Assembly: GCA_951406725.2 (NCBI GenBank)
Contig: OX597822.1
Span: 34,844,001-34,908,000 of the forward strand
DNA length: 64,000 nt
Direction of reading: 5' to 3'
From: Octopus vulgaris
Lineage: Eukaryota
Each line of letters begins with the position of its first letter. Position 1 is the stretch's first letter. The position numbers and the translations under genes were made by a program. A model generated the notes under the pieces. It saw nothing but the letters and a program-made list of their open reading frames with translations, was not told where the DNA came from and searched no databases. Below are positions 226 to 62,046 of this stretch, piece by piece.

Positions 226-408
226 TGTATATATATATATATATTTATATATGTGTGTGTGTGTATATATATACATATATATGTGTATTTATATGTACAT
301 ATTTTTATATATGTGTATATATATATGTATATATATATATATATATATATATATATATATATATATATATATATATATATATATATATATATATATATAT
401 ATATATAT
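226..408. repeat. (TA)n/(TG)n microsatellite
   Basis: Directly visible. Confidence 0.95.
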
Positions 409-696
409 TGGAAGGTTTGGAGATGATGTACAGGTATTATATATTAGAAGAAATGAGGTAGTCAGATCGGATGGTTCATATTTATAGATATTTATTTATA
501 TATTACATTTTTTACATATATATATCATATCATTCAAATTTGATTTGAAGACCCCACTGGAATGGGAGAAAGCGCTAATAATCCGAATGATATGATCTGA
601 ATGATATGATATATATATGTAAAAAATGTAATATATAAATAAATATCTATAAATATGAACCATCCGATCTGATTACCTCATTTCTTTTAATATATA
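408..696. mobile_element. Foldback element in (TA)n, probably PLE pseudo-LTR derived
   Basis: About 99-bp inverted arms at 438-536 and 598-696 with ~2 mismatches; degenerate hammerhead core in the loop; (TA)n on both sides. Confidence 0.7.
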
Positions 697-1460
697 TATA
701 TATATATATATATATATATATATATATATACATGTGTGTGTGTATATATACATATATATTTAATATCTATTACATTATAAACGGTGTTTATATTGACTAG
801 GAATAAGGTACGCGATGAATATCCAAACAATCTTATTTAAACTGCATTAAACTTTGGCAAGCTTAACTTTAAGTATTCTGAGTTACTTAAAAGGTGATGT
901 TCCTTTCTCATTCTTCTATTTGTTGATACCTTTGCTTATCTACCAATGCGATGTTTCACTTTAAGGATGCTTATTTACCCATCCATTATGATATTTCGGC
1001 TGTTGTCGATTGTTTGAAATATGTTTTAGCATTGTCATTCTAGCCCTTTTTAAACAATCACATATGATTCTTCGCAAAGAATCAACCTTCAAATAAGAGT
1101 TTTGCTTCCACTAGTGAAAGCTAAACGTATCTTTCAGAAAGCCAGGCATTAAAATACGCTTCAACACTCGAATTCGCATAAAGATTCTTGCAAACCAAAT
1201 ACAAAACGAAATCTATCTATCGATATATACAGATATACATTCATACATACATATATATATACATACATACATACATACATACATATATACATTCATACAT
1301 ACATACATACATATATACATTCATACATACATATATACATCCATACATACATATATACATACATTCATACATACATACATACATACATACATACATACAT
1401 ATATGTATGTATATATGTATATATATATATATATATATATATATATATATATATATATAT

Positions 1461-1797
1461 GAAGACGCATGGCTCAGTGGTTAGTGCGTCGAGCTTACGA
1501 TCGTGAGGTTTAGAGCTCGAATCCCGGACCGGGCTGCGTGTTGTGTTCTTGAGCAAGACACTTTATTTCACGTTGCTCCAGTTCACTCAGCTGTAGAAAT
1601 GAGTTGCGACGTCACGGGTGCCAAGCTGTATCGGCCTTTGTCTTTCCCTTGGATAACACTGGTGGCGTGGAGAGGAGAGGCCGGTATGCATGGGCGACTG
1701 CTGGTCTTCCATAAACCACATTGCCCAGACTTGTGACTAGGAGGGCAACTTTCTAGGTGCAATCCCATGGTTAGTGTCGTGATCGACGGGGGTCCCC
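1461..1797 (+). mobile_element. tRNA-derived SINE (family C), full length, in (TA)n
   Basis: A box TGGCTCAGTGG, B-box-like GCTCGAATCCC, central GTGTTCTTGAGCAAGACACTTTATTTCAC; related copies at 1-222, 21237-21355 and 39300-39485(-). Confidence 0.85.
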
Positions 1798-3199
1798 CCG
1801 ATATATATATATATATATATATATATATATATATATATATATATATATATATATATACATATGTATATGCATACAAACACATGTATATATATATTCCAGC
1901 ACATACAGACAGTGATTCTGCTACACACATACATTCTAATGCATACTTCCTTATTCTATTAATCCTATATATATATTTTAATACACGCATATATATTCCC
2001 GTACACGCACACGCACATACATTGCGGTACACATACATTTGCGAAAGAAAATGTTTCCACATCCCACCTGATTTCTCTCCGGCAAATGCACACACAGACG
2101 AACGTACGCGCACGCACACATACAGACACACGCACACACTCTAACGGCTAATCATTACCACACACACACACACACGCGCATTTTTACATAAAACTGTTAC
2201 CTTATCTGTAAAATGTTTACGTCACACATACATACACACGCAATTGCACGCATGCACACGCGCGCGCGTAAATTATTTATGAAATAAATTTATCTTCAGT
2301 AACCATCACAGAAAAAAAAACTATACATACACATAGATACTTTCGGATAAGTACTGGCTTTTTTATCGTTGTACTTTTACCTTCTGTGTCTCCCTTTTTC
2401 AAATGTACTCATTCTCTCAATTTCTCTTCCTCTCCCCCTGTCTCCCTGTCTCACACACATTCTCACTCGGTCTCACACAAACAGACACTTAGACACACAC
2501 ATGCACACACACACGCATACACTTGATAAACTTTTATATACACAGAAGCACGTTCTGTCACCTTCCCATATAGGTAACTAAGTAACTTCCCAAATAAAAG
2601 CAAAAGGAAATATTTCGATGAATTAAGTATTCAAAAATACACTCATTTCCGGGAGCGAAAATATATTTAAAAGTAAATAAATAGATAAATAAAGAGATAA
2701 AGGAATAAATAAATGAAAAAATGAATAAAGAAAGAAAGAAATGAATAAATAATTGTAAAGTGAGATAACTTTTTCGTGTTTTTATAAATGTCATTCTAGA
2801 CACGCAGAAATAGTAATAGTGTGACGTGGTTCTCTAATGTGGTGTGTCTTTAGGGGAGGCATATGTGTACTGAAAGAAAATAGAATAACACCAAATATAA
2901 CACCAAAATATTTTCTTGAAACAATTATTCATAAAAATAGATAATGGGGAAAAAGCGAAAAAAAGAGCGTCCATAAAGATCGTTGATGTATGGGCTTTGC
3001 CCTCTCTCTCTCTCTCTCTCTCTCTCTCTCTCTCTCTCAAATATACATCTCTCTGTTTCTTTCTCTCTCTTTATATATATATATATATATATATATATAT
3101 ATATATATATATATATATATATAAGGAGGGAAAAGGAGGAAAAGGCAAAACAACCAAAGCTGAAACCCCAACCCACCACACAAACAGCAGAGAACCCCA

Positions 3200-3638
3200 T
3201 GGACGATCCAATGCCACCCAGTACACTTCAGGAAAGAAGACATCTGGAAGGCACCGAAGAACCTGTAAATTCTACCTGCGGGGCAAATGTTGGCATGGTG
3301 AGGACGGCAAAAACTACCGGTTCGCCCACCCGACACCCCGCCAGAACTTCAGGGGACTCAAAGAGAAAAGCTTTAGCAAGGGGACACAAGAAATGTGTCC
3401 CAGGAAAAGTTTCAAAAACGAAGTGCGCTCCTCAGACGTTCTGCGCAACGCAGCAGCTGAGCAAGAGTCTTTTTTATGCATGGCGCAAAGAATTGTCCGG
3501 CAGCTAACCTGGCTACACCAAGCACAGAGAAGGAACCCTGCCCACCAGAGAAGGAACTATGCAAGACCACCACAGTCAACAGACACGGGATGGCCTCCCC
3601 TAACGCCTGCACAGCCGTCACCCCAATACTTTTACTAA
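3200..3638 (+). pseudogene. LINE ORF1 remnant with CCCH-type zinc finger
   Basis: CKFYLRGKCWHGEDGKNYRFAHP: the third Cys position reads Y; lies immediately upstream of the APE domain. Confidence 0.6.
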
Positions 3639-60590: not shown

Positions 60591-61128
60591 ATAACAGACT
60601 TCACAATTTAGGTATTCAAAACTTATTGGGAATTCCTAAAAGCAAGATCCTGCGTAAGACAGTTCGGTATTTTCTGGAAATGTACAAAAACCGTTTTAAA
60701 AGCTACATACTTTGAATTCTTGATATTGGAGTATCGAAACCCCGCTTTCTCAGGAATTACCGGGTGCGTCACCTACTTTTAAATACATACATACATATAT
60801 ATATATATATATATATATATATATATATATATATATATATATGTATGTATGTATATATGTATACAGAGTTAGTGAGAGATAGAGAGAGAAAGAAAGAGAG
60901 AGAGAGAGAGACTGGCGACGGAGGACAGTTACAGGGTCTTTAGAGTCTAGGCATATCGACACGTAGGACGCCATGAATGACTGGGTACTTTCTAGTGACC
61001 TCATAGTAGAGTAAGACAAATCGTAGTTGTAATTTATTCGTCGTATACTCCGTCTCCCTCTCTCTGTATATATATATATATATATATATATATATATATA
61101 TATATATATATATTTTCCTTTATTCTGT

Positions 61129-61238
61129 TACTTGTTTCAATCATTTGACTGCCGCCATGCTGGGGCACCGCCTTTAGTCGAACAAATCGACCCCAGGACT
61201 TATTCTAGCGATGGTGGGAGCAGAAACACAACACACAA
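61129..61238 (-). mobile_element. SINE family B 3' fragment (internally deleted)
   Basis: TACTTGTTTCAATCATTTGACTGCCGCCATGCTGGGGCACCGCC. Confidence 0.8.
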
Positions 61239-61287
61239 ATATATATATATATATATATATATATATATATATATATATATATATCTT

Positions 61288-61417
61288 TCTGTAAATGTAA
61301 TATGGGACAATTATTCGGTAGCCATGATAAAACCCCGAGTTTCGGATGCCGAGGTGGAAATCCACGCCGCCATTTCTTTATGGCTACCGAATAACTGTCA
61401 CATATTACATTTACAGA
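61288..61417. mobile_element. Small foldback abutting (TA)n
   Basis: 38-bp arms at 61288-61325 and 61380-61417 (2 mismatches); loop has a degenerate minus-strand hammerhead-like stem II plus GAAAC. Confidence 0.7.
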
Positions 61418-61567
61418 TATATTCCTCTATTTGCATACTATCGTGGTCACTTTCTTTCTTTTGTTATCTTACCGTTTTTATCAATATGTATATATGTGTA
61501 TGTATTATGTATGTATATATGTATGTACGTAGGTATATGTGTATATAAATATATGTATAGAATAAAT

Positions 61568-62046
61568 GTTTTGAATGGCACAACAATGCACTATAATACA
61601 AACAGCGGATTATAATAACTGTTGTTTATTTAATCCTCCATAGTTTGATATGATATTTCGGAATAACAATTCCTTCTTCAGCTATCCCTAAGAATTGATG
61701 TAGTCGCTGCTATAATCGGTTTCCCAACGGCTTTTTATTTTTATATGTATGTGAGTGCATGTGTATATGTGAGTACACTGATTTATTCATACATGTGTAC
61801 GTGTCTAATGTTGACCAAAAATATGTGAGCGTATTTACTCTGCATACTTATGCATAAAAACATTAAGATACAAAAAAACATAAAAAGAAGCCGTTGCAAA
61901 ATCGATTATAGCAGCGACTCCATCAATTCTTAGAGATACCTGAAGAACGAATTTTTTCTCAGAAATATAGACTATGGATGATTAAATTACACCAGTTATT
62001 GTAGTCCAATATTTGTGTTATAGTGCTTTGTTGTGTCATTCAAAAT
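61568..62046. mobile_element. Diverged foldback with a hammerhead core in each arm
   Basis: Arms at ~61568-61750 and ~61878-62046; minus strand CTGAAGA AGGAAT-TGTT-ATTCC GAAA (61681-61656); plus strand CTGAAGA...GAAA (61940-61965). Confidence 0.72.

Follow-up and report, generated by a model that had tools for sequence, protein, structure and literature searches.

Unrelated inserts, several of them hammerhead-bearing, in a TA-rich locus of Octopus vulgaris carry the probable footprint of Penelope-like element integration

A 64,000-nt stretch of the Octopus vulgaris genome (assembly GCA_951406725.2, contig OX597822.1, positions 34,844,001 to 34,908,000; hereafter the window) holds a series of short inserts that begin at the edges of (TA)n microsatellites and carry hammerhead ribozyme motifs, and the question that it raises is what put them there. 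The original prediction saw one window-wide system of foldback elements, all non-autonomous and mobilised by Penelope-like elements (PLEs). The pattern proves genuine and exceeds chance by a wide margin, and known biology accounts for it: independent PLE-type insertions have accumulated in a TA-rich patch. The most probable account, to which we assign a probability of roughly 0.8, is that the inserts are independent copies of unrelated families pasted into (TA)n by PLE reverse transcriptase (RT) and GIY-YIG endonuclease, four being ends of coding PLEs and two being retrozymes copied in trans.

The window (35% GC) is composed of microsatellites, short interspersed element (SINE)-like repeats and long interspersed element (LINE) fragments. 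It has 3.3 (TA)5+ runs per kb; the figure is 1.2 for a sample of the 2.8-Gb genome (about 30 large contigs) that took in 80 evenly chosen stretches of 10 kb, 800 kb in all. All seven inserts listed initially do start at a (TA)n edge, and they are mutually unrelated: natural reference copies of the nine families (lettered as in Table 1) share only chance matches of up to 22 nt (best cross-match E 0.006). Each of the nine inserts belongs to a dispersed family, and the copies are independent insertions of these genome-wide families and not parts of one system. The unbiased sample held two loci each of families A, C and D, six of E, 17 of H and four of N, and none of B, F or G; the family counts given below are first-look candidates, not copy numbers. 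Self-BLAST of the window with repeats masked detected inverted repeats in six of the seven inserts (408-696, 15064-15846, 30062-30690, 55017-55154, 61288-61417 and 61568-62046) and none in 16509-16652. Three inserts run longer than was proposed (55020-55325, 61286-61483 and 61568-62101), the added part being the 3' tail.

PLE-type mobilisation is supported, among other things, by the fixed 3' ends of the copies and the linkage of families C, F, G and N to open reading frames (ORFs). Copies in all eight TA families (A to G and N) stop at one of two fixed 3' points, an inner one and an outer one 38-170 nt beyond it; both enter (TA)n, and a short TA-like seed is present at both ends in each family. 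The outer end is followed by (TA)4+ within 14 nt in 12/12 cases for C, 11/11 for G, 5/5 for N, 9/10 for E and 3/4 for F, a few loci overlapping. For family D, 12 of 17 matches to the outer-end word show (TA)4+, and the remaining five come from a similar-looking stretch of an unrelated SINE. This is far above the background of 618 among 33,686 random non-microsatellite positions and supports the proposed TA targeting. That the foldback is a designed structure of the elements is not supported: one arm usually ends at the inner point and the other at the outer, the arms differ by 0.6-26%, arm length and the centre breakpoint vary in every copy, and inversions occur in 17 of 27 retrozyme loci. An optional 3' tail and inverted 5'-truncated copies, as expected of PLEs, are present in all TA families.

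The pattern that was first noticed is thus the published footprint of PLE integration. Earlier papers describe an inverted 5'-truncated copy, a 30-40 bp tail and a (TA)n bias of PLEs (PMC8557442), and pairs of minimal hammerheads 100-700 bp apart on opposite strands, with a U3-A8 core and low cleavage in vitro (PMC4209133). A PLE also starts reverse transcription at two internal sites in vitro, leaving a tail that is termed unique to PLEs (PMC11167929); the two fixed 3' ends correspond to this tail signature, which ties the retrozymes to PLE enzymes. Following this published biology, the endonuclease would nick TA-rich DNA, reverse transcription would begin at one of two internal RNA sites (giving the inner end or the tail end), and a second, 5'-truncated copy would be primed on the other strand, so that the foldback would be an integration scar.

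Two further arrangements were seen among such insertions. In locus L054 (1375-1700; loci fetched from the genome are numbered L), a TA run on either side encloses an inverted family D piece that is fused without a gap to a family C end, which suggests a template switch from one PLE-type RNA to another, unrelated one. At L200 (1700-3200) and L255/L256 (G000:C4:48523442-48530934), PLE-type insertions form the centre of palindromes in which the flanking DNA is duplicated too and the arms differ slightly; these may be either real inverted duplications or assembly foldbacks.

The hammerhead coordinates of the original prediction are correct. We scored the motifs with a stringent descriptor of type I hammerheads, which requires the core, at least 4 bp in stem I, at least 3 bp in stem II, a palindromic or 4-bp stem III and a UH site; it gave five matches in the window (15194-, 16590+, 29842-, 30368- and 30472+) against a mean of 0.005 and a maximum of 1 in 200 local dinucleotide shuffles. 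These matches support minimal type I hammerheads with a palindromic stem III. Five of the six motifs that had been called well-formed are among them, while 15547 fails through a change in stem II; the three graded as degenerate do not match in their window copies, in agreement with that grading. The six do not each have their own stems, as 15137/15541 and 30309/30467 are inverted duplicates, leaving four independent well-formed motifs. The window copies at 55020 and 61286 have no intact hammerhead, and their families carry one or a variant upstream. Five motifs were found in the 800-kb sample and none in each of 10 shuffles, which would put the number of intact motifs in the genome at roughly 17,500 (95% range 5,700-41,000); the four motif-bearing insertions of the window amount to about ten times the average density, which is no fair test in a window picked for them. 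Rfam returned no hammerhead in the best 150 of 292 window matches nor in targeted scans at E<=10, a silence that is no evidence against minimal motifs, the window scan having been swamped by microsatellite matches.

Not all inserts are non-autonomous. Four of them (409, 6907-7509, 55020 and 61568) are 5'-truncated, partly inverted 3' ends of coding PLEs, in whose families RT and/or GIY-YIG is coded upstream of the 3' repeat. The family C insert (1009 candidates) matches, at 93-96% identity, DNA that follows a GIY-YIG frame at a distance of 1.2-1.4 kb in L244, and the arrangement recurs in L243, L245 and L246; this frame carries a cysteine (Cys) linker and reaches 31.9 bits in Pfam. The family core reads UUGANAA, of U3-A8 type with a weak stem I, and the hammerhead-like motif at 545 is doubtful as a relic of this type. 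The piece at 7318-7509 is, as predicted, a real PLE endonuclease fragment, with a CxxxxCxxC linker in its translation. It is the inverted half of a family N insertion whose 3' end is 6907-7208(-) and adjoins a TA run (6843-6906). Both pieces match L035/L043 in opposite orientation, and relatives hold RT and GIY-YIG frames with a Pfam score under the cut-off. Copies of family N (1145 candidates) match the window piece at 89-96% identity, and most of them are broken. The insert also contains a decayed U3-A8 hammerhead at 7067-7103(-), absent from the original list, which matches the descriptor in relatives and not in the window copy.

The family G insert (602 and 1003 candidates) is 98% identical to both pseudo-long terminal repeats (pseudo-LTRs) that flank RT and endonuclease frames in L299, and is truncated downstream of the family hammerhead. 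In L269-L282, about 330 nt upstream of the start of the window copy, a hammerhead-like motif has a CCGAAGA core, a palindromic stem III and a GGCC/GGCC stem II that closes a structured insertion of about 110 nt, near-identical in 6/6 copies read. Family F (1588 candidates, 87-90% identical) has a GIY-YIG frame upstream in L070, at 25.3 bits against a Pfam cut-off of 22.6, with RT not seen there, and its relatives hold an intact minimal hammerhead. Pseudo-LTRs arising from partial tandem insertion were seen in G (L299) and in a further coding family, P (L235 and L237). We take the G endonuclease to be Hydra-like by its motif. The labels Neptune, Hydra and Penelope/Poseidon denote endonuclease motifs, with the linker criterion as given in PMC8557442.

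The families at 15064 and 30066 are, by contrast with these four, non-autonomous hammerhead elements as predicted, and by structure they are young non-LTR retrozymes: non-coding tandem repeats with a type I hammerhead in consecutive units. Their monomers measure 497 nt (A) and 505 nt (B) between cleavage sites, the outer end runs on into the next unit, and the longest stop-free stretch is 73 aa in A and 60 aa in B. The top copies are 98-100% identical in A (995 candidates) and 99-100% in B (1636 candidates). Tandem and permuted units occur in A, and B arrays reach 6.7 units. Among 14 A and 13 B loci, top matches and thus biased, TA lies at one end at least in 27/27 and at both in 23/27, and lengths range from 0.8 to 6.7 units. 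Descriptor matches recur in four consecutive units of B in L196 and in four plus three in L197, and two same-strand A motifs lie 497 nt apart in L008. Doubled A and B motifs are predicted to form a dimeric hammerhead with free cores, and the circular fold of the monomer reaches -116.7 kcal/mol in A (z -4.9) and -141.3 kcal/mol in B (z -8.2; 60 shuffles). In a 65% relative of A, three stem I pairs are changed on both sides (slid controls gave 0-1), double changes that are suggestive of pairing and no more than that.

In the cycle that we envisage, tandem arrays would be transcribed, same-strand hammerheads would cleave as dimers through the palindromic stem III, monomers would circularise, and circular or multimeric RNA would template cDNA of more than unit length. 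In the window copies, each strand carries a single sense motif opposite its complement, and same-strand pairs are absent; such copies would fold into long hairpins and are therefore likely to be inert dead ends. No listed holder of A or B sequence is on record as RNA. Contigs of runs that we guess to be RNA cover the B monomer with a head-to-tail joint, which tandem DNA would give equally, and strand, ends and level are not readable from them. Short blocks are kept in relatives of 61-65% identity, about 150 nt upstream of the A hammerhead (window 15425-15460) and in the B relatives L104 and L171. They are YY1-like in A and E2F-like in B. The A monomer also contains a possible splice donor, and a pyrimidine tract with AG immediately precedes its stem I. 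By analogy with PLE pseudo-LTRs, these features may possibly be an internal polymerase II promoter and an intron.

Table 1. Coordinates of the families and hammerhead cores (window positions, except for family P).
Feature	Position	Strand	Description
Family A	15064..15846	mixed	1.6 units of ORF-less 497-nt tandem monomer with internal inversion; predicted hammerheads 15137-15200(-), 15541-15604(+)
Family B	30066..30690	mixed	1.3 units of ORF-less 505-nt tandem monomer with internal inversion; predicted hammerheads 30309-30373(-), 30467-30531(+)
Family C	409..696	mixed	3' end (pseudo-LTR) of coding Neptune-type PLE; tail arm on - (409-539) joined to + arm ending at inner 3' end
Family D	16511..16650	mixed	PLE-type 3' end; 66-nt tail on - (16511-16582) joined to + hammerhead piece (core 16590)
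Family E	61286..61483	mixed	PLE-type 3' end; - arm broken inside hammerhead core (61417-61288), + arm with tail
Family F	61568..62101	mixed	two old inverted 3' ends, 74% alike, of coding PLE; decayed cores 61681(-), 61940(+)
Family G	55020..55325	mixed	3' end and 170-nt tail of young coding PLE; short inverted piece at 5' side
Family H	29756..29987	-	tRNA-like head (29987-29916), (AAT)n and PLE-type body with minimal hammerhead (29847-29802)
Family N	6907..7509	mixed	Neptune-type PLE 3' untranslated region and tail on - (6907-7208); inverted endonuclease piece on + (7311-7509)
Family P copies	L235-L239, e.g. G000:C16:20834800-20841300		U3-A8-type motif by eye, T-rich stem I
Hammerhead cores, called well-formed	15194(-), 15547(+), 16590(+), 29842(-), 30368(-), 30472(+)		
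Hammerhead cores, called degenerate	545, 61681(-), 61940(+)		

Families D and E have PLE-type ends of the same kind and good family hammerheads. Family D (221 candidates, 1092 with an upstream query) shares at least 2.3 kb of non-coding upstream DNA, which inverted RT and endonuclease pieces, a candidate coding region, abut in L257 and L264, with nested insertions nearby. Family E (568 candidates) was followed about 200 nt upstream, and its relatives carry intact hammerheads.

Family H is of a different kind. The motif at 29802 is not TA-anchored: the family ends at TA in none of 17 inner ends, six further ends and 17 loci of the sample, and the window copy adjoins a TA run only by its truncated 5' end. 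Its body has its own two fixed 3' ends and frequent inverted arms. With 2896 candidates, 84-92% identical, and 17 loci in 800 kb, which extrapolate to about 60,000 copies, H is a dispersed, non-coding, high-copy head-body unit, as SINEs are. The join of head and body is family-wide, as the head lies upstream of 20 of 34 body copies (head then body in 9 of 14 head matches), and L195 (1964-3277) holds six tandem bodies behind one head. ARAGORN called no tRNA gene in eight H loci, nor did Rfam report a tRNA at E<=10; by eye, the head has putative A- and B-box-like motifs of polymerase III promoters. In three of the 34 copies (L082, L084 and L088), another upstream sequence, common to all three, and (AAT)n precede the body, which suggests that the body attaches to the (AAT)n tails of more than one retroelement. 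Together these features suggest a PLE-driven SINE, for which the alpha elements of schistosomes are a precedent.

Other repeats were seen in the window as well. A SINE-like repeat of about 185 nt, without a hammerhead by the descriptor, forms head-to-tail arrays of two to four units (23206-23626, 37790-38581, 46545-47253 and 56132-56737) and single copies (11785, 13144, 31908, 33876 and 50429). Broken LINE copies on the plus strand (3461-6641 and 59436-60572), 72% alike over 1.1 kb, contain apurinic endonuclease-like and RT-like frames. Further inverted pairs, mostly opposed SINE-like copies, lie at 11117-12453 (11117-11242 and 12328-12453 being 98% alike), 12556-13813, 31939-34065 and 46042-46533.

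Which element could supply the enzymes for A and B? The fragment at 7318-7509 had been proposed to point to the partner. Family N is rejected in this role: with copies about 90% identical to one another, it is older than the 98-100% identical retrozymes and shares no sequence with them. A Pfam search for the GIY-YIG family gave 6136 candidates, of which 150 were scored; this survey favours some clades and its partner list is incomplete. A 781-aa open frame was found in 16 of the 150 and defines family P, of which five fetched copies are 98.7-99.6% identical and end at TA. It codes RT (28.9 bits, just under the cut-off) and GIY-YIG (over the cut-off), and the pseudo-LTR precedes an upstream frame of about 470 codons that overlaps the RT-endonuclease frame. 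The 3' region (1.1 kb) is covered by contigs of runs guessed to be RNA, from which strand, ends and level are again not readable, and has repeated CCAAT/CRE-like and TATA-like motifs. The TA-targeting family P would be a better candidate partner than N, and P or the young family G is a plausible enzyme donor for A and B. O. vulgaris is credited with 31 recently active PLE families (PMC13282606); the available part of that account does not mention ribozymes.

Could A and B instead be pseudo-LTRs of autonomous PLEs yet to be found, multiplied in cis as partial tandems and lacking an RNA cycle of their own, with the hammerhead a passive relic? Four neighbouring families did prove to be coding-PLE ends once longer copies were fetched, the partner survey took in a small part of the endonuclease candidates, and hammerhead cleavage is dispensable for PLE insertion (PMC11167929). 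We nevertheless consider this improbable, as the tail end enters the next unit without an ORF in 27/27 A and B loci, for up to 6.7 units, relatives at 61-65% identity keep the unit layout, and the monomers fold strongly (z -4.9 and -8.2). It is hardly credible that the inserts are foldback or miniature inverted-repeat (MITE-like) DNA transposons targeting TA, or foldback artefacts of assembly. Both arms are 3' ends of one unit, usually stopping at different points (inner versus tail), each copy has its own centre breakpoint, an inversion is lacking in 10 of the 27 A and B loci, arms differ by 0.6-26%, and RT or GIY-YIG frames lie upstream in four families; this outweighs the long inverted arms and TA flanks and the few fetched palindromes that include flanking host DNA (L200; L255/L256). 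The ORF links and asymmetric ends, with no fixed terminal inverted repeats, largely refute a MITE or foldback transposon, and a pure assembly artefact is rejected on the same evidence.

A third possibility concerns the microsatellites themselves, which may have been made or greatly lengthened by insertion, a short TA seed having grown through slippage or untemplated addition; targeting would then be partly a product. The TA-like seeds at both 3' ends and the runs flanking both ends of most copies would fit this, and no empty site was seen among the fetched loci. We regard it as unlikely, given that many insertions sit in TA tracts belonging to common SINEs or long compound arrays and that the literature ascribes to PLE clades a preference for (TA)n already in place (PMC8557442).

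Several points weigh against our preferred account of PLE-driven insertion of coding ends and retrozymes. The loci are top matches to window queries, which biases the architecture counts to similar copies, and the tails of A, B, C, D and G (38-170 nt) in part exceed the 30-40 bp known from the literature. Among 84 loci around endonuclease matches and PLE-type ends, a small sample, no autonomous PLE shared A or B sequence (the exceptions were one nested A relative and two marginal matches at E 0.004). As for the ribozymes, the minimum-energy structure of most isolated motifs is not a monomeric hammerhead, and doubled D and H motifs do not give the predicted dimer fold. The conserved G10.1-C11.1 pair is replaced by U-U in D and by an A-C mismatch in the young A motif, where it is kept in an 83% relative. 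The stem I changes of A come from four sequences and were reached by 75 of 500 shuffles, the covariation score by 22 of 500. Hammerhead mutants do not block PLE insertion in vitro (PMC11167929), and dimers of Xenopus retrozymes cleaved in one case of nine and not in the other eight (10.64898/2026.07.22.740005).

How do these families compare with known systems? As in endonuclease-bearing (EN+) PLEs (Neptune, Penelope/Poseidon and Hydra), RT is combined with a C-terminal GIY-YIG in the coding families (with a Cys linker in C, N and P), and the PLE-type inserts show a hammerhead near the 3' end with a U3-A8 variant, an inverted 5'-truncated copy, an optional 3' tail, a (TA)n bias and opposite-strand hammerhead pairs 100-700 bp apart. 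They differ in tails of up to 170 nt and, for P, in the separate upstream frame that overlaps the RT-endonuclease frame; clade names are assigned here from motifs alone. Families A and B share with metazoan non-LTR retrozymes ORF-less tandem repeats of low GC, one type I hammerhead per unit, a strongly self-paired predicted circle and a range from monomers to multimers. Their layout is that of the working definition of such retrozymes (PMC7229834; 10.64898/2026.07.22.740005), with units longer than 150-450 bp (PMC7229834) and within 51-972 bp (10.64898/2026.07.22.740005). Retrozymes have been viewed as non-autonomous derivatives or passengers of PLEs (PMC7229834; 10.64898/2026.07.22.740005), and a minority of families show homology to a PLE pseudo-LTR (10.64898/2026.07.22.740005). 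Unlike 24 of 57 Xenopus families with a Repbase homologue (10.64898/2026.07.22.740005), A and B had no homologous pseudo-LTR in the 84 loci; and no description was found, in the available portions of this literature, of copies that are dispersed and TA-anchored and show inversions and the double 3' ends of PLEs. Family H resembles the Schistosoma elements Sm-alpha and Sj-alpha (PMC6765202) in its polymerase III-type head upstream of a hammerhead and in occurring as single and tandem copies. It differs in its minimal PLE-type motif, (AAT)n linker, two fixed 3' ends and inverted arms, in a tandem unit without the head, and in a head that neither ARAGORN nor Rfam calls.

TA targeting, inverted arms, pseudo-LTR hammerheads and PLE-derived retrozymes are all already published. 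New here is that ORF-less retrozymes and a SINE-type family bear a clean double-end signature of PLEs, in a genome that also contains a young and intact PLE. We found no description of these families in the literature and nothing on them in PMC10886601; the supplements or repeat libraries of PMC8557442, PMC4209133, PMC7229834 and PMC13282606 may list them.

What mobilises retrozymes in animals is so far a matter of argument, based on co-occurrence and on homology to pseudo-LTRs. In O. vulgaris, young ORF-less retrozymes with PLE marks (two fixed 3' ends, inverted truncated arms and TA targets) share the genome with near-identical intact PLE copies, which makes a trans-mobilisation model testable in the published in vitro assay. 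We tentatively extend this, at somewhat less than even odds, to PLE enzymes as general trans-mobilisers, comparable to LINEs for SINEs, of circular-RNA retrozymes of about 500 nt that would continue to spread into (TA)n and of a tRNA-headed hammerhead SINE with some tens of thousands of copies, both sharing no sequence with any autonomous PLE. If this is true, the PLE-only double 3' end on both would prove directly, from the genome, that target-primed reverse transcription by PLEs serves retrozymes and a SINE.

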